NCBI GenBank assembly: GCA_052055015.1
Contig: JBQJIT010000026.1
Origin: Malassezia furfur
Lineage: Eukaryota
Reading direction: 5' to 3' (one strand)
DNA length: 53,979 nt
Shown here: positions 18,467 through 53,979 of the stretch, piece by piece
How the letters are laid out: every line of letters begins with the position of its first letter
Numbering within the stretch: the first letter of the stretch is position 1
Notes under the pieces: generated by a model
Database searches by the model: none
What the model was told of the DNA's origin: nothing
The model's input: the letters and a program-made list of their open reading frames with translations, nothing else
Translations under genes and position numbers: made by a program

Positions 18467-19141
18467 ATGGTCTTTTCGCGTGCAGGATCAATGCGCGCCG
18501 CAACAAGCGCGGCGCGGGGGATCTGCACGAGCGCACTCCGTGCGCAGGCCCCACGGCCACCGCGGCTGATCCCCGGGGCTCACGTCATGGCTGGCACTCA
18601 CACTCCGAAGGACCCTATTGAGGTCGCTCGCCTATACCCCGACCATCCATTGATGCGGTTTTTCCAACGCGTGCCTGTGGAAGTACCCAAGGCAGGCACT
18701 GAAGGGAAGCACGCCGATGAGCGCGATACACTATATGTTCCTCAAGCTGTCACAGAGGCTGATCTCGGCAAGGACAACTCGTCGCGCTCATGGCTCGCTC
18801 CAGAGCTGCGCCGCAAGAGTAGTGCTGATCTTCACAACCTCTGGTATGTGCTCTTGATGGAACGCAACCGCCTTGCAACGAGCTGGGAGGAGATCAAGCG
18901 AAACAATGCTGAGGGCGCTGCTCATATGCTCGGCGAGAGCCTGTCCTATCGTCACCACAGGGTATGTTGTCTATTCCGCTAACACCAGGTTCGCAAGTCG
19001 ATGGCGCGCATTAAGTTTGTCTTGAACGAGCGTCGTCTTGCTCTGATTGACGCGCAACGACGTGCGCGCGAACAACAATCGGCTGAGCCCCAAGAGGATG
19101 ATGGCAATCTGTTCGAGACATCGCAAGCAGCATCGAACTAA
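18467..19141 (+). CDS. MRPL4: Mitochondrial ribosomal protein uL29m (MRPL4/MRPL47); exons 18467-18961 and 18989-19141
   Basis: Presequence-like N-terminus; RSWLAPELRRKSSADLHNLWYVLLMERNRL; splicing out a 27-nt intron restores HR|VRKSMARIKFVLNER; stop TAA at 19139-19141. Confidence 0.9.
18962..18988 (+). other. 27-nt spliceosomal intron in MRPL4
   Basis: GTATGTtgtctattccgCTAACacCAG; removal restores a conserved motif; carries an in-frame TAA. Confidence 0.9.
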
Positions 19142-28400: not shown

Positions 28401-29359
28401 TCTGCCGACTTCCTTGGGAACCCGGTGGGCTTGTTCAACAACGTGAGCTCGGGTGTGGCCGACATCTTCTACGAGCCCTACTACGGCCTGGTCATGCACG
28501 GCAACCGCGAGCTGGGCTTCGGCATCGCGCGCGGCGCCAGCAACTTTGTGAAGAAGACCGTATTTGGCGTGAGCGACAGTGTGTCGAAGCTCACCGGATC
28601 CATCTCCAAGGGCCTCGCGGCGGTGACCATGGACCGCGAATTCCAGAACCGCTGGCGTGCGACGCACATGCGCAACAAGCCACGGCATGCGCTGTACGGC
28701 ATCACGACCGGCGCCAACTCGCTGTTCACCAGTGTCGCGAGCGGCATCGAGGGCCTGGCGCTGCGTCCGCTCGAGGGCGCGGAGCAGAGCGGCGCGGCGG
28801 GCTTTGTGCAAGGCCTGGGTCGCGGCCTGGTGGGTGCCCTGACGAAGCCGGCGGCGGGCTTCTTTGACCTGGCGAGCAACGTCACCGAGGGGCTGCGCAA
28901 CACCACGACCGTGTTTGAGCAGAACGACATTGACCGGGTGCGTCTGCCGCGGTACATTGCGATGGACGACATTGTGCGTCCCTACTCGGCGCGCGAGGCG
29001 CTGGGGCAGTATTGGCTGTACCAGCTGGACCACGGGCGGGTGCAGAACGACCACTACATTGCGCACGTGGACACGTCCGGCCCCGGCGGTGGCTCGACCA
29101 TCATGCTGACCGAGCACCGCATCCTGTACGTGCGCACGGCGAAGCTCAAGGTGCTGTGGGAGGTGGTGTGGCCCGATCTGTCTACGATTTCGTACGTATT
29201 CCCGACTTACCGTCCAGGCTCGAAAGCAGCGGCATTTCGCTCGTGCTGCGCGGCGGCGTGATTGGTCCCTTTTTGCCGATCAACGAGACGAGCACACGCC
29301 TGTGGCTCTTCAAGCAGATCTCGGGCGTGGTCCAGAAGTACAACACCGCGCATTCGTAG
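19446..29359 (+). CDS. VPS13: VPS13 bridge-like lipid transfer protein; exons 19446-29191 and 29218-29359
   Basis: Chorein-N start (MLEGVLASVLNRFLSAYVDNL...GIWNGDVKLKNL); VAB-region motifs (WEPLMEPW, RNRTGY); ATG2_C-like ILGSADFLGNPVGLF...GLVGALTKP; a 26-nt intron joins to LESSGISLVLRGGVIGPFLP...YNTAHS*. Confidence 0.95.
29192..29217 (+). other. 26-nt spliceosomal intron in VPS13
   Basis: GTACGTattcccgaCTTACcgtcCAG; removal shifts the frame into a plausible conserved C-terminus (LRGG..GPF.P). Confidence 0.85.
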
Positions 29360-29455: not shown

Positions 29456-31008
29456 ATGTCGGACGCGCAAGGCGGCAACGGACTGGGGTCCGCGTCCGCG
29501 CTCAGCTCGGGGTTCCCGCTGAACTCCATTCTTGGTAACCAGACGCTGCGGCAGGGCGATTCGAACGCCATGTACTATCCGCAGGTACGTCCCCGACACA
29601 CCGCCCGCTCCGCGGCGCCCGCCCCGCGCTCCGGCCGGGGTACGCGCGCGTCGGGCGTGCGCGCCCACAGTGACTAACACCGCAGAGCACGCATCCCTTC
29701 TATGCTGGGCATCATGCGCAGCCGAATTCGCCGCCCGCGCGCGCGCCGCACGGGGCCGAGGGCGGCGCGTATCCCAGCGGGCACCTTGTGCCCTACCTCA
29801 ACCAGCACGGCGGCGATACGGGCGACATGGGCGCGGCGGGCGCGCCACAGCTTGACGCCTTCTACATACAGCAGCCGCCCGGCTCGTTTGTTGTGCCGCT
29901 GGACGTGCCCGACGTCAACTCGTACGCACACCCCCAGGCCGGCCTGCCGTCCGGCCTGCCGCTCCGCGGTCCGTCGAACCTGCCCGGCTGGGGTGCACCG
30001 TCGCGCCAGTCGCCCGCGAATGCGCCGCACGATGCGCACGATGAGGCTGACATGCTCAATGGCGCCCACGGTTACCCACCACTCTCCGGGCCCATGCCCG
30101 GCGCGGCGCGCGGCATGGGTCAACCCATGTATGCGCGCCCCACCGACGCACACCGCCAGATGATGCTCGAGCAGGAGGCTGCGGCGCGCGGCGGGCGCGG
30201 TGCGCCCATGCCCAAGCGGCGGCGCACGAGCCCCGTGCCGTTTGGCGAGCCTGGCGCGGATCTCATGTCGCGTTTCCGCGGTGCGCCGCAGGGGATGCGG
30301 GGCGCAGCACCGCCCAACGCGCGCGGCCTGGGCGGGCGACGCGACGACGGTGCGCCCCACGACGCCTCTAACCTGTCGGAGCTGATTCCCGGCGCGGACG
30401 ATGGCGCGCCGCCGAGTGGCGACCTCACCTCGTGGATTTTGGGCCCCGACGACCAGCGCAGCGCGCACTTTGCGATGCCCGATGCCGCCGCGTACTACCG
30501 GGCAAACAGCATGGGCCAGCCGGGCCTGCGCCTCGATATGCCGGGCATCCCGCCCAGCCATGCGGGCGCGCTCGATCCGAGCAAGGGCATGGCGCCACTG
30601 CGGTCGCACGCGCCCAACTCGGACGACGAGCCGCTGTATGTGAACGCGAAGCAGTACCAACGCATTCTCAAGCGCCGCATGGCACGTGCCCGCATGGAGG
30701 AGAAGCGACGGCAAACGTGGCTCATGCAGCTCAAGCAGCGCGAGGAGCAAAAGAACGGGGGTGCCCCCGCCGAGATCTCCGAGGAGTGGGTCTCCGGGCT
30801 GCTGGCGCTCGACGAGGAGTCCAAGAAGCCCTACTTGCACGAGTCCCGCCACAAGCACGCCATGCGCCGCCCGCGTGGACCAGGCGGGCGCTTCCTCACC
30901 ACGGAAGAGATCCGCAAGCGCGACGATGAGGCCGCCAAGAAGGCCCAGGCCGAACAGGCCGAGCAGGCCGAGCCGGCCCCCCCCGCAGCGGCGGCGGCGA
31001 GTACATAG
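29456..31008 (+). CDS. HAP2: CCAAT-binding complex subunit Hap2/HapB (NF-YA); exons 29456-29584 and 29686-31008
   Basis: [17 protein letters not shown] and [24 protein letters not shown]; a 43-codon first exon joins in frame through a 101-nt GTACGT...CTAAC..CAG intron. Confidence 0.92.
29585..29685 (+). other. 101-nt GC-rich intron in HAP2
   Basis: CAG|GTACGT ... gaCTAACacCGCAG|; phase 0; the downstream exon is in frame with the Hap2 domain ORF. Confidence 0.85.
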
Positions 31009-31046: not shown

Positions 31047-31898
31047 ATGCTGCGCCTCGCGTCGGGGCTCGCGCTCGGCACCGCGATCGCCGCGCTGCAG
31101 GTGCGCCGCCGCCGCCGACGGCGTGCCGCTCGCTACGCCGAGCGTGTGCGTGCCGCCGATCGGCCTGCCGCCTGGTGCGTGCGCCTCCCACCCGAGATCC
31201 GATTGCGGATCCTGGCGTGTGCGGTCCAGCACGCGGCGGCCGCTGCACCGGACAGCCGCGCCGCCTCGTTTGTTCCGCTCCTTACACTGTCGCACGCGTG
31301 CTGCCGCGCCCTTACCCCGGTCGCATACCACACAGTGCGCATCACGTCGCCGCGTGCACTGCACCAGCTCCGCCGCACGCTTGTACTGCTTCGGCCGGAC
31401 CTGGGCTTGTACGTGCACACACTGGCGCTCCATGGCCTCACAGAGGCGCTCGCGCTCGCGCTCGAGCACCTGCTTGTGCTGCTGCCTGCGCTCACGCACC
31501 TCGTGCTCGACGCACCGTCGTGCACCGCGCTCTGCCGCAGCACCGCCGAAGGGCTGCGGTGCGGCGCATGCCCCACACGCCTCTCGCTCGTGCTGCCCGA
31601 CAGCGAGGCAGCGCTGTGTGCGTCCGGTACGCTGCTCACCTATCCACTGTGCGCGCACGTTCATACGCTGTACGTTGCCGCGTCACCCGGCGCAGCGCTC
31701 GTGCTGCTCCAACGTCTTGATACGTGCCTCGGCGCACTGTGTGTCGTGCATCTCGGTGTTTATGGATCGGACGCGGGCGCACGGCGTGTGCGCGACATGT
31801 GCGCAGGCGGCTTGGCATGTCGCGACGTCGCGGTCCACGTCACGCACTCAGCCCACGACGTACCCGACACCCTCCCTCTGGGTTCTATTGTACACTAG
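31047..31898 (+). CDS. Hypothetical protein with an F-box-like motif and leucine-rich C-terminal region
   Basis: ATG 31047; hydrophobic N-terminus followed by an Arg run; RLPPEIRLRILACAV and later LTLSHACCRALTPVAYHTVRI...LGLYVHTLAL, resembling basidiomycete F-box/LRR-like proteins. Confidence 0.6.
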   Translation: MLRLASGLALGTAIAALQVRRRRRRRAARYAERVRAADRPAAWCVRLPPEIRLRILACAVQHAAAAAPDSRAASFVPLLTLSHACCRALTPVAYHTVRITSPRALHQLRRTLVLLRPDLGLYVHTLALHGLTEALALALEHLLVLLPALTHLVLDAPSCTALCRSTAEGLRCGACPTRLSLVLPDSEAALCASGTLLTYPLCAHVHTLYVAASPGAALVLLQRLDTCLGALCVVHLGVYGSDAGARRVRDMCAGGLACRDVAVHVTHSAHDVPDTLPLGSIVH

Positions 31899-31899
31899 C

Positions 31900-34800
31900 C
31901 TAGGCAGCACGTAGCGCGACGGCACGCAGCCGCGCGAGCGATGCATCAAACGTACGTGCCGCGGGGAGCGGCGTGTGCAGCAGCAGCTCGGTGCGCGCCA
32001 CATCGAGGTACACGGGCACGAGCGGCGCCTGCGCCTCGCCGTCGGCGGCGCGCGTCCATCGCAGCGCACACTGCGACACGCGCGTCGTTGTGCCGTCGTT
32101 CAGGCCCACGCCCTCGTCGGTGATGGCTGCACCGTCCAGCCATAGATCTGGTTTAGCTCACACAAACGTACCGTCCACCAAGTAGACACCGGGTGCACTC
32201 GTCTCGACCCCCGTCACCACGGCCGGCACAACCTCCTCGAGGTGCGTGTGCGTGGCACGTGCCGCAGCCTGACGCGCCGCCATCAAGAAAGCACGCACGT
32301 TAAACAGGCGGTGCAGCGCGACACGCACCGGCGGCGTACCGCACTGTGCAATGCGCGCACCGAGATCCGCGATCCACCCCGCGAGGCCCAGGTCGGGCGC
32401 GACGGGGTACGCGCGCCACGCGTCGGGCACGTCGTCGCGTACGATCGCCGTGGCCAGCGCCGCGCTCTCATTCGTGTGCCGGCCGTGCGTGTCGGCGGCA
32501 TCGACCACCGCGCCGAGTTGGGCGCGGACACGCTCAAGGAGCGCGTGCGCCGCGTCCTGCTCGCGCCGCCAGAAGCTGGGTTAGCCGGGGGTTACATACA
32601 AAGCAAAGGCCGGGTCCGAGGGCGCGCCGCGCTCAACCCGTTCGGGTAGCGCCGTAAGCCATCCAGATGCAAGCTCCGCGGCGCGCTGGGTTTCGTCGGT
32701 GTGCGCGTATTGGGCATCCGTGTCTGTGTGCTGCTGGAGCGACGCGAGGCGGTGCAGCGCGTCGAGCGCATGCGACGCCGCAACGCTGCGCTCTGCGTAC
32801 GGCGCGAGGAGCAGCCACTGCACGGGCTGGGGCGTGGGCAGCGCGTGCGCCCATGCAACAAACTGCTCGTGCCGCGTGCCCTCAGGCAGGACAAGGGGCA
32901 CCATGGGGTCGGGCGCGAGCACAAACGCCGCATCAAAGCTCGCTGGGACAAAGACGCGGTCGATGAGCGCATCGAGCATGGCGCGGTCCGGCGCGCGATC
33001 GAGTTTTGCACCATACACGGCCTGCTTGAGCATCGTGCGAAGCGCGTCCCACGGCACGTCGGCCGGCGCGAGGTGCGCCTTGTGCCCCGCAGCGTGCCGC
33101 GTCCACGTATCGATTAGGTCGAGCGACGCGAGGAAGTCGACTTCGTGGAACTCGTACACCTGCGTCCAGCCGATTGGCACGTACTGTACGCGCTCGACCA
33201 CGACTGCATGCACATACGCGGCAAGGCAGTAGAGCCGTACACGCTCCTGTGGCCCCGGCATGGCCGCGCGAGCCTCGGCGAGGCGCAGGCACGCAAGCAG
33301 CGCCGCTTTGACACCCGCCGGCGGCTCGTGCATCACGACATGCGCGCCGCGCAGCGCCGCACGCGGCAGCCGCGCACTCAGCTCGCACGTCACGAGCACA
33401 CGCGTCGCGGCGTGGGCGTGCAGCGCAGCTACGCGCGGCACCAGTCCCGCGAGCCAGGGCAGCGCCAGGTGCGCGTTTTGCACCAGCACCCAGTGCCCCG
33501 CGCGCGCCGCAAGCGCCAGCGTACGCTCCGCCGCCACGAGCGCCTCGGGCGCACCGAGCGCCACGTCCGGGCATGCGATGCCCCGCACCCGTGCGGCGTG
33601 CATCACCTGCCTGCTCGCGTCATGCCCCGGGGGACTGCACAGCACAACGGGCACGTGTGCCGGCGTGGCGTCGATCAGAGCATCGATGCCGGGCAACTCG
33701 TACAGCGGCACGTCCAGCGCGGCCTCGAGCGCACGTGCGATGCTTGGCACGGTATGATCGGCACGTACGATGCGCACGGCGATCGCGCGGCGCACGAGAC
33801 GCGCGACGTCCTCCGCTTCTGTCGCATCGTCGTCCTCGAGTGGAGTTGGCGCCGTTTCGGGCGCCGGGCGCGCGGCGTACGCCGTCCATGCCTTGGCGCG
33901 CTGCCCGCGATCGAGCTCAACGCGGCGCACGTACGGCACATCCGGCAGCCACGGCGCAAGCAGCGTGCGCAGCTCGTTGTCATCATCGCGCGCGATAAGC
34001 GCCAGGACGGCTGCGAGGACGAGGCGGTCACGCTGCAGCACAGAGGGCGCCGTCGCGCCGTACGCCTCGCGGAACAGCGCGCGTGTGAGCTCCGCGACGC
34101 GGTCGGCACCGTCGTGCGCGGGCGTACGCAGCACGCGGTCGAGCACGTCCCAAAACACGTCGAGGCTCCATTGGTAGTACGGCTGGAGCGTACCCATGTC
34201 ATGCAGCGCAAAGTAGACGGCGCTTGCCGCCTCGGCCAGCGGCTCGTATGCATCTGTCACTGTGCGGACGTGCGCGGCGAGCTCCGCCGCCTCGGTCGCA
34301 CGCGCTTGCACCTCCTCTGCCTCGGTCTTGAGCGTCTCGAGGGTGGCGACCACCTGGTCGCTCTCGAGCAGGTGCCCCTGCGCCTCGTTCAGCGCCGCAA
34401 GCAGAGCGTGGTCGAGGTGCTGCAGCCGCCGCTGGAACTCGCCCTGCGCCGCGGCAACCTGCGCACGCTGCGTCTCGATGTCGGGGCGCTCGGCGTGCAG
34501 CACACGGTGCAGCGCCTGCGCCTGCAGACTCTTGCGCGTGGTGGTAAAGTTGACCATCTGCACGCGACACGCGACGTACTCGGGCAGCACCGGCGCCGGG
34601 TCACGCGTCGTGAGGAACAGCCGGAACGACGGCGCACAGTCGACGTCCTGCTGCGCGACGCGCACCAGCACTCGCCCGCCCGTACGCCGCTTCTCCTGCT
34701 TGAGTACAGGCAGCAGCACCGGGTCGATGTGCTCGGCGTCGTGGAGCAACAGCGGCGTGCCAAATCGCAGCGCGCTCTCGAGCACCTTGACAAAACTTGT

Positions 34801-52015: not shown

Positions 52016-53979
52016 ATGGGGAAGGCAAAGGGCGGAGCGTCCGCCGAGGCTTCGGCCAAGTCGGTCGCGCTGCGCGACGAGCTCGAGAATTTGAGCTGTC
52101 GATTCATCGTGAACCTCCCTGCGAATGAACTGGCCAGCATCGAACGCATCGGCTTCCAGGGCGAGCAGGCGTATGTTGTCCGCCTCACACAGACATTGGT
52201 TCTACCTCGACTTTTTGTGCCCGCTCAATCCCGACCTGCCTGAACTTAACCTGAAGCGCTTCTCTGAGGAGCTTTTGCATGTCTCATCACTCGTGGTGCC
52301 GCTCATCCGGCTGTACATGGAAAAGGGGCCCAAGAGCCTCGAGCTGGCCTTTAGCCAGTTTATGCAGTATAAGACGCGCGTGCCCGTGTGTGGCGCGATC
52401 CTGCTCAACAAGGACTGGAACAAGGTAGGTTATGTGTACTGACACAGTGTGTACTTGTCAAGGGCTGGTCCAAGGGCGCCTCGTGGACGTTCCCCAAGGG
52501 CAAAATCAACCAGGATGAGCCCGAACGCGACTGTGCCCTGCGCGAGGTGCGCGAAGAGACGGGCGTCGATGCCACGCACCTCCTCCCGCCAGACAGCCGC
52601 GACTATCTCGAGCTGACGATGCGTGAGCAAAAGGTCCGCCTGTACATTGTGCCGGGACTCTCGGAAGACACGCCGATGGAAACACAGACCCGTCGCGAGA
52701 TTTCGGTAGGTCGACGCACGCACTGACCCAGCGCATCGAGTGGTTCCCCCTGTCGGACTTGCCCACGGGTAAGAAGGACAAAAAACCCCGTCCGGAGCTG
52801 GGCGGGAAATTCTACCTCATCACCCCGTTCGTTACCCGGCTGCGTCAGTGGATTCAGGCGAACAAGCGGACGCATCCACACAAGCCGCCGCGCCCACAAA
52901 CGCCGCAGCCGGTGCAGCAGGCGCAGAGCTCGGCACCAGCCAAGGCCGAGGGCGAGAGCGTGAGTCTCGATGCGCTCTTTGGAGCGGCGGCGCCCGTCCA
53001 GCGCCCGGGGCTCATTGCATTGCCCCCCGCCGCTCAAAAGCAGATGCAGGCCTCCCGGCCCCAGACACCTTCGTCGCCGCAACAAAAACGACAGGGCAAG
53101 GCCAACGGACGTACGCCAGGCAAGCCGCAGAACCGCTCTGCCAAGCCGTCGCCGCAGGGCACGCCGCAGGCGAACGACTCCAGCAAACTGCTCCTCAATC
53201 TTCTACAGGGATCGCAGCCAGTGCCGGCTCCCCAGGCCGAGAGCGAGCCGAGCCGCGAAGATGGCTCGACGGCGCTGCGCAACCTGCTGGGTCTGAAACC
53301 GGATGCCGTGCCCAGTACACTCCAGCCAGGTGGCCCCCAGTCGACGACTTCACGGGAAGAACACCAGGCCCATCTCTACTCGCTGCTGGGCATGCCGCAC
53401 CAGATGCCAGCTGCGCCGCCCGCGTCGCCGTGGCCCGCCGTGGGAGTGCCGCCGTCGCACGGACCGTGGCCGCCGGCACCAGCGCATGACAAGCCCGGCG
53501 CAGGCTCCGCCGAGTCGCCCGCGGCGCCTGCACCGCCCCCGGCACCTGCAGGCACCTCACAGGCCGAGGAGCACCGGAACCGCCTACTCGGGCTGCTTGG
53601 TGGGCCGCGGCCTGCTGCTCCTTCTACGCCGCACGCCGCCGAGGCGAATGGTGCATCGCCGCACCCGGCGCCGCAGGCCTCTGCCCCATTCGGCTATCCC
53701 GGCCAGGCGGGAGCGCATGCGCCGCATATGCCGTCGTACCCTCAGCACCTGCCACACTATCCCTCGCCCATGCACCAGATGCCGCCGCACCAGCCGCCGA
53801 GGCCGCCGCATTTTGGCGCATCTGCAGGGCACCCAGAACCGTGGCACGGCGCTCCCAGCCGATCGATGCCGACGAGCCCACCGGCCGCGGGCAACACGCC
53901 GCAGTCCCATCAACACGCACTCCTTTCTACATTGCTGAGTCCGCCGGCGTCTTCCGCACGGCCTGCGCACTTCCCCCCG
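52016..53979 (+). CDS. DCP2: mRNA decapping enzyme Dcp2; exons 52016-52170, 52193-52424, 52448-52705, 52732->53979 (3'-truncated)
   Basis: Box A LSCRFIVNLP...EQA|HWFYLDF; YKTRVPVCGAILLN; NK|CVLVKGW; Nudix box GKINQDEPERDCALREVREETG; EIS|RIEWFPLSDLP; FYLITPF; Pro-rich tail with leucine motifs. Confidence 0.93.
52171..52192 (+). other. 22-nt intron 1 of DCP2
   Basis: GTATGTtgtccgcCTCACaCAG; removal restores EQAHWFY. Confidence 0.9.
52425..52447 (+). other. 23-nt intron 2 of DCP2
   Basis: GTAGGTtatgtgtaCTGACaCAG; removal restores NKCVLVKGW. Confidence 0.9.
52706..52731 (+). other. 26-nt intron 3 of DCP2
   Basis: GTAGGTcgacgcacgcaCTGACcCAG; removal restores EISRIEWF. Confidence 0.9.

Follow-up and report, generated by a model that had tools for sequence, protein, structure and literature searches.

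The 53,979-nucleotide stretch of Malassezia furfur DNA analysed here (contig JBQJIT010000026.1 of assembly GCA_052055015.1; referred to below as the window) carries seven ultra-short introns, which analysis of the sequence confirmed as genuine U2-type introns without a pyrimidine tract. Malassezia very probably splices thousands of introns of ~21–30 nt, and the combination of a sharp size floor with decay of the protein surface that normally reads the 3′ end suggests a modified splicing route. Introns far under the ~50-nt donor-to-branch limit of human extracts raise the question of how a multi-megadalton spliceosome acts on them; they are known chiefly from ciliates, nucleomorphs and obligate parasites, whereas Malassezia is a culturable yeast. 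With thousands of introns, a sharp floor and a candidate change in the U2AF65 RRMs, the question becomes directly testable in this genus, for which genetic tools are described (PMC7426719).

Ultra-short introns in the window

The initial annotation had placed seven introns of 22–27 nt in the window, and a check of the window sequence confirmed every coordinate and length (27, 26, 24, 24, 22, 23 and 26 nt in order of position), with two of the introns on the minus strand. The MRPL4 gene (MRP-L47 family) is interrupted on the plus strand by the 27-nt intron 18962..18988, which is supported by the sequence, the reading frame and Pfam; the MRPL4 profile picks up again at the first residue past it. 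The 26-nt intron 29192..29217 (plus strand) lies close to the end of the VPS13 gene and is supported by the reading frame. Two 24-nt introns (32148..32171 and 32576..32599, minus strand) interrupt the gene for the C-terminal part of a dynein heavy chain; each is 23 nt long in a second copy of the gene, and both are supported by the frame and by that copy. The remaining three belong to DCP2. All of the introns whose length is divisible by three (3/3: the MRPL4 intron and the dynein pair) contain an in-frame stop.

All seven begin with GTA(T/C/G)GT, contain an internal CTNA(C/A) word and end in CAG, the pattern described previously. The donor-to-branch distance, first put at ~16–20 nt, is slightly longer when measured, with the branch A at +17 to +21. 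Every intron has GT...AG ends with the donor consensus, as U2-type introns do, and the donor consensus of U12-type (minor) introns, ATATCC/GTATCC, was found in none of the seven. The claim that each removal restores a conserved protein motif stands for the three DCP2 introns, and MRPL4 fits it. For VPS13 and dynein, Pfam showed no profile continuity across the junctions (VPS13_C ends at the exon end, with no match beyond the 29192..29217 intron), and the support is the reading frame, joined for dynein by the second copy. A further intron-like segment of ~100 nt lies at ~29585–29685 (plus strand) in the gene after VPS13 and is probably the eighth intron of the initial annotation.

The DCP2 gene model

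DCP2 is encoded on the plus strand and its ATG is at 52016. Exon 1 (52016..52170; supported by the frame and by a match to Pfam DCP2 model positions 3–31) is followed by intron 1 (52171..52192; phase 2, branch A at +17), whose 22 nt compare with 23 nt in the second copy, and the profile resumes at model positions 33–83 in exon 2 (52193..52424), so that the two matches flank the intron. Intron 2 (52425..52447; 23 nt, phase 0, branch A at +18), which like intron 1 is supported by the frame, homologs and the second copy, precedes exon 3 (52448..52705), to which Pfam assigns the NUDIX domain. Intron 3 (52706..52731; 26 nt, phase 0, branch A at +21), supported by the frame and homologs, is also present in public M. 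furfur records, and the frame of exon 4 (52732..53979) is open up to the end of the window. The DCP2 and NUDIX profiles span the exons in order.

Only one of the eight possible combinations of intron removal, that in which all three are taken out, leaves DCP2 open to the window end; the unspliced product would have 75 aa, that without intron 1 134 aa and that without introns 1 and 2 221 aa. In an alignment of 22 of the 120 homologs found, gap-free matches at junctions 1, 2 and 3 were obtained for 14, 15 and 18 sequences, respectively, with smuts, mushrooms and Mucorales among them. In the others the region is absent, was trimmed away in the alignment or shows in-frame indels exactly at the junctions, as expected from a mis-annotated intron at the same position. 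Longer GT–AG junctions were considered and rejected: several keep the frame open, but they would remove conserved residues, and only the short introns give the gap-free match to orthologs. A search for Malassezia DCP2 loci in metagenomes returned distant NUDIX genes only. DCP2 codon 49 (window position 52161) encodes Gly, in contrast to the Val of the second copy and of almost every ortholog, which points either to strain variation or to an erroneous base.

The idea that gene finders overlook such introns is largely borne out, since all three junctions are correct in just one of the six named Malassezia DCP2 records, and introns of this kind are wrongly spliced in many of the public protein records for Malassezia. 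The limit of 30–40 nt proposed for the finders is too high, however: in both M. furfur-type DCP2 records the 26-nt intron is kept, and it is those of 22 and 23 nt that are missed.

A second gene copy as an independent check

The assembly comprises 13.7 Mb in 1,856 contigs and contains a second copy of DCP2 at 91% identity. Among named DCP2 homologs, the best matches come from M. furfur and related species. The genome is M. furfur-like with two subgenomes, and the second copy agrees with the doubled genomes that Wu et al. described in M. furfur (PMC4634964). The second copy spans window positions 31121–53969, so that five of the seven introns can be compared. The GT, the branch word and the CAG are kept in all five, and three differ in length by one base. 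Coding indels between the copies number four in 16,431 bases, all of them multiples of three, and 1-nt indels are confined to introns; identity is 596/645 over DCP2 exons 1–3 and 91/119 over the introns. As a one-base change in length is harmless only if the segment leaves the message, the second copy serves as an independent check on the introns.

Genome-wide intron architecture

Across the whole genome, the pattern donor–gap–CTRAC–gap–YAG gave 3,180 matches against 251 for the reversed pattern, from which we estimate about 3,000 consensus introns. A detailed sample covering 4.4% of the genome (603,979 bases, drawn from the window and from parts of seven contigs) showed intron lengths that peak at 21–26 nt, compared with ~1 per length in Markov controls. 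When all donor–branch pairs in this sample were counted, the branch A was found at +15 in no case, at +16 in 45, at +17 in 51, at +18 in 35, at +19 in 27 and at +20 in 24, over a background of 1.2, and the excess over the whole range +10 to +15 was 0.6. Genome-wide, the same signals with a branch at +15 or earlier gave 19 matches against 13 in the control. These motif scans detect near-consensus introns only, perhaps half of the total if intron density is like that of M. sympodialis, and weaker introns below +16 could escape them. Longer introns also exist, as in ARF1 (71 nt).

Donors anchored to branches at +16 to +23 were GTACGT in 100 cases, GTATGT in 37, GTGCGT in 14, GTAGGT in 12 and GTAAGT in six, and the branch words of 204 introns, which can pair with the U2 snRNA, were CTGAC (101), CTCAC (67) and CTAAC (36). 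Of 249 cases in the sample, 122 have the intron end 5 nt past the branch A. A separate class of 15–17 nt introns, hinted at by a bump at branch position +12 (8 against 1.0), was rejected: three of these are nested donors of 21–25 nt introns, one is a decoy in ARF1 and there is no genome-wide excess. In the ARF1 gene (contig C6:36915–36930) a 16-nt donor–branch–acceptor with perfect consensus opens the 71-nt intron and is unused judging by protein conservation; it offers a natural test of the size floor.

Recognition of the 3′ end and U2AF65

The absence of a polypyrimidine tract, claimed previously for the window, holds in the wider sample, where the linker is 49% pyrimidine compared with an overall 50% for the sample, and where 192 of 204 introns have no T run longer than 1–2. 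From the branch to the intron end the median is 5 nt, at 53% pyrimidine, and these 3′ ends thus lack the tract that marks a U2AF65-dependent 3′ splice site.

The aromatic and basic RNP1 residues of RRM1 have a role in stacking on uridines. Compared with the human structure sequence, RRM1 of the Malassezia U2AF65 has lost the lysine and both aromatic residues of RNP1. We aligned the best 120 of 697 U2AF65 homologs, among which the Malassezia clade comprised 18 sequences (six named Malassezia and the query included; support 0.76), and the best 120 of 1,515 SF1 homologs, with a Malassezia clade of eight sequences (support 0.58); clade support in both trees is moderate. Positions at least 90% invariant in other fungi were taken as invariant, and their retention was counted per domain. 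The Malassezia-clade U2AF65 keeps 64% of these positions in RRM1 and 66% in RRM2, against 96% in the UHM, and SF1 keeps 97% in KH–QUA2 and 91% in the helix hairpin. After sequences gapped at the motif had been dropped, the RRM1 RNP1 was intact in none of 17 clade members and in 100 of 102 others, both outside exceptions ranking among the Malassezia matches. The motif is broken in a different way in each Malassezia species, as expected under relaxed constraint.

Judged from these alignments, the decay is selective for the RNA-binding domains and is not a general fast evolution of the protein. The tryptophan that binds U2AF35 is conserved, the N-terminal RS region is short and U2AF35 itself looks intact. 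RRM2 retains part of its RNP1 and three of the 18 clade members retain both aromatic residues of RRM1; RNA binding by U2AF65 may be altered rather than gone. Tandem RRMs have a footprint of ~9 nt. The ~2 nt that separate the branch word from YAG cannot accommodate them, and the decay of U2AF65 therefore fits its substrate.

Spliceosome components and the U1 snRNA

The initial annotation had proposed an inventory of U2AF, SF1 and U1 components as a check. U1-70K (two copies, conserved RRM), U1C, SF1, U2AF35 and U2AF65, the last with its decayed RRMs, are all present, as are RBM39 and METTL16, and several splicing-machinery genes themselves carry 21–32 nt introns. SF1 retains its ULM, SPSP and PPxY motifs. 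One copy of U2 and two each of U4, U5 and U6 were found; the branch-pairing GUAGUA of U2 and the ACAGAGA of U6 are canonical. The U6 internal stem-loop has one extra loop base relative to the Rfam consensus, the same in both copies (L023 1501–1605), and an element resembling a C/D-box snoRNA, with weak similarity to snR39/SNORD2 below the Rfam cut-offs, was seen at L005 1960–2058.

The U1 snRNA was not found. Two genome searches with Rfam RF00003 yielded nothing U1-like, a match in one of them lying in coding-like sequence, and six U1-aimed and two snRNA-promoter patterns run over the genome gave nothing U1-like, with 41 of 173 candidates scored. For three of the U1 patterns the loci scanned with Rfam were 21 of 21, two of two and 19 of 30 (39 matches); for another the downstream sequence was inspected for 30 of 55 matches, and the last two were judged among the matches listed. 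An altered U1 5′ end complementary to GTACGT was built into four of these genome patterns, again with nothing found. The U1 snRNA is probably divergent, interrupted by an intron or outside the assembly.

The word AACGGCC lies ~75–110 nt upstream of all seven snRNA genes found (U2, L001; U4, L134/L135; U5, L132/L133; U6, L023/L024), and a TATA box is present ~30–38 nt upstream of those for U2, U4 and U5 as well. AACGGCC looks like a promoter element shared by Pol II and Pol III snRNA genes. When it was required with a TATA 50–80 nt downstream, the genome-wide matches were U2 and U5 only.

RED is needed for short human introns; a homolog search for it, run without a positive control, gave no match. 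That the C or T at donor position +4 stems from a lost METTL16 was rejected, because two intact-looking copies are present. These copies (L137 and L138) have the NPPF motif and one 21-nt intron each, and yet the donors have C or T, rarely A, at +4. In the text of PMC10581693, U6 m6A is called generally incompatible with a +4 U preference; the Malassezia +4 is mainly C.

A proposed minimal intron and its alternatives

We consider it probable that these are standard U2-type introns at the minimal size of the lineage, recognized in a branch-point-driven manner with U2AF65 acting as a scaffold. The minimal intron would consist of a donor of 6 nt, most often GTACGT, at least 6 nt of linker, CTRAC or CTCAC with the branch A at +16 or beyond, and YAG ~5 nt further on. 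SF1, bound to the branch word, and U2AF35, bound to the neighbouring AG, would select its 3′ end. U2AF65 would be retained as a protein bridge through its SF1-binding UHM and its U2AF35-binding tryptophan, leaving the U tract unread, since there is neither the sequence nor the room for one. The floor at +16 would represent a steric limit. In humans a donor-to-branch minimum of ~50 nt is ascribed to simultaneous snRNP binding, and the B-complex geometry requires ~52 nt (PMC6692369), so Malassezia must leave that geometry somewhere. Sequential binding of U1 and U2 and a shortening of the U6 and U2 helices are two ways in which it may do so; the engagement of U1 and of the U2/SF3b particle is probably either compacted or stepwise, unlike in the human A and B complexes. 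Both the floor at 16 nt and the decay of U2AF65 lend real support to the modified assembly route put forward in the initial annotation; the core machinery found is standard, and the exclusion of joint U1 and U2 binding is something that we infer. A bolder version, which we regard as tentative, is that early assembly has been rebuilt around a 21-nt minimal intron, with an RNA-blind U2AF65 bridging SF1 and U2AF35, a highly divergent U1 snRNA that hands off the donor before U2/SF3b docks (no joint A complex) and +16 as a hard limit.

It is also conceivable, though we think it rather unlikely, that the assembly route is fully standard, with 16-nt loops tolerated as in ciliates and the U2AF65 changes reflecting drift or a shift in specificity. 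The canonical U2 GUAGUA and U6 ACAGAGA, the SF1 motifs listed above and the core conserved in Stentor despite introns of 15–16 nt (PMC9505925) are all in keeping with this. A 10-nt loop with a conserved core, as in Stentor, means that a short loop alone demands no new route and that +16 is not a universal limit. Against it stand the restriction of decay to the RNA-binding domains of U2AF65, the UHM of the same protein being spared, and the ~52 nt that the human geometry requires (PMC6692369).

Loss or near-disuse of the U1 snRNA, with U6 and U5 reading the donor directly as proposed for Cyanidioschyzon merolae, would account for the failure of RF00003 and the patterns to find U1 whereas U2, U4, U5 and U6 were easily found, and the C or T that most donors have at +4 is a mismatch to canonical U1. 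It is nevertheless improbable, because the U1 snRNP proteins, which a U1-less system of the C. merolae type would lack, are represented by U1-70K and U1C. The assembly is moreover in 1,856 contigs, with U2 and SF1 each found in a single copy and 41 of the 173 U1 candidates scored, and microsporidian U1 was overlooked for years before proving divergent (PMC5499648). The least credible explanation is that the segments are frameshift artefacts of sequencing or assembly, or are mostly retained as in microsporidia, where the short introns of E. cuniculi are reported to be spliced at below 20% (PMC6349667). Against this, an independent second copy preserves the words at donor, branch and acceptor while length and linker vary, retention would cut DCP2 to 75 aa and 99% of the 5,350 introns in the curated M. 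sympodialis set have RNA support (PMC5389616).

Comparison with known systems

That Malassezia introns are short, as the initial annotation stated, is published, and its novelty was overstated: PMC7426719 describes the introns of the genus as very short, and the M. sympodialis set curated by Zhu et al. (2017) has a mean of 30 bp over 5,350 introns, 5,271 of them supported by RNA-seq, whereas in the automated annotation introns were longer and often wrong (PMC5389616). In the text of that paper, on the same genus, we found nothing on the geometry of the splice signals, on branch spacing or on which spliceosome components are present; a lower limit may be given in its Fig. S8 (length distribution) or supplements. 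No description of Malassezia branch spacing, spliceosome or U2AF65 was found in the literature searched, including the accessible text of PMC8476143, PMC3560662, PMC4634964, PMC12506658, PMC10158995, PMC10581693 and bioRxiv 2024.12.05.626984, a coverage that takes in few subscription papers and makes novelty on literature grounds weakly evidenced. The list of exceptions below 30 bp in PMC13644364 likewise does not name Malassezia in the text consulted.

Introns of comparable size are known from ciliates, microsporidia, dicyemids and myxozoans. In Stentor coeruleus, U2-type introns likewise fall short of what the human geometry requires, and snRNAs and core proteins are conserved. Its introns measure 15–16 nt, form a 10-nt loop and have a U-rich body, whereas those of Malassezia have a floor at +16, range from ~21 to 30 nt and more, and have strong donor and branch words; the changes reported for Stentor are in Cwc25 and Isy1, not U2AF65 (PMC9505925). 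A fixed Stentor-type length is not seen here, as there is no excess with a branch before +16. Encephalitozoon, a reduced fungal relative, has ~25-nt introns and a U1 snRNA that is hard to detect; microsporidia have few, poorly spliced introns and a much reduced spliceosome, while Malassezia is a free-living culturable yeast with thousands of introns and the tested components present (PMC6349667, PMC5499648). Myxobolids and dicyemids have ultra-short introns with medians of 22–27 bp, but their splice-site motifs are reduced and those of Malassezia are strong (PMC13644364).

The branch-point-led recognition proposed here has a parallel in budding yeast. The Mud2/BBP route of Saccharomyces cerevisiae is branch-point-led and uses a divergent counterpart of U2AF65. 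This route is outlined in PMC10158995; S. cerevisiae has no U2AF35 and long introns, whereas Malassezia has an intact-looking U2AF35 and an AG ~5 nt from the branch. Short introns in the genus are already known, and what appears to be new is the sharp floor at +16 together with decay of the RNA-binding domains of U2AF65.
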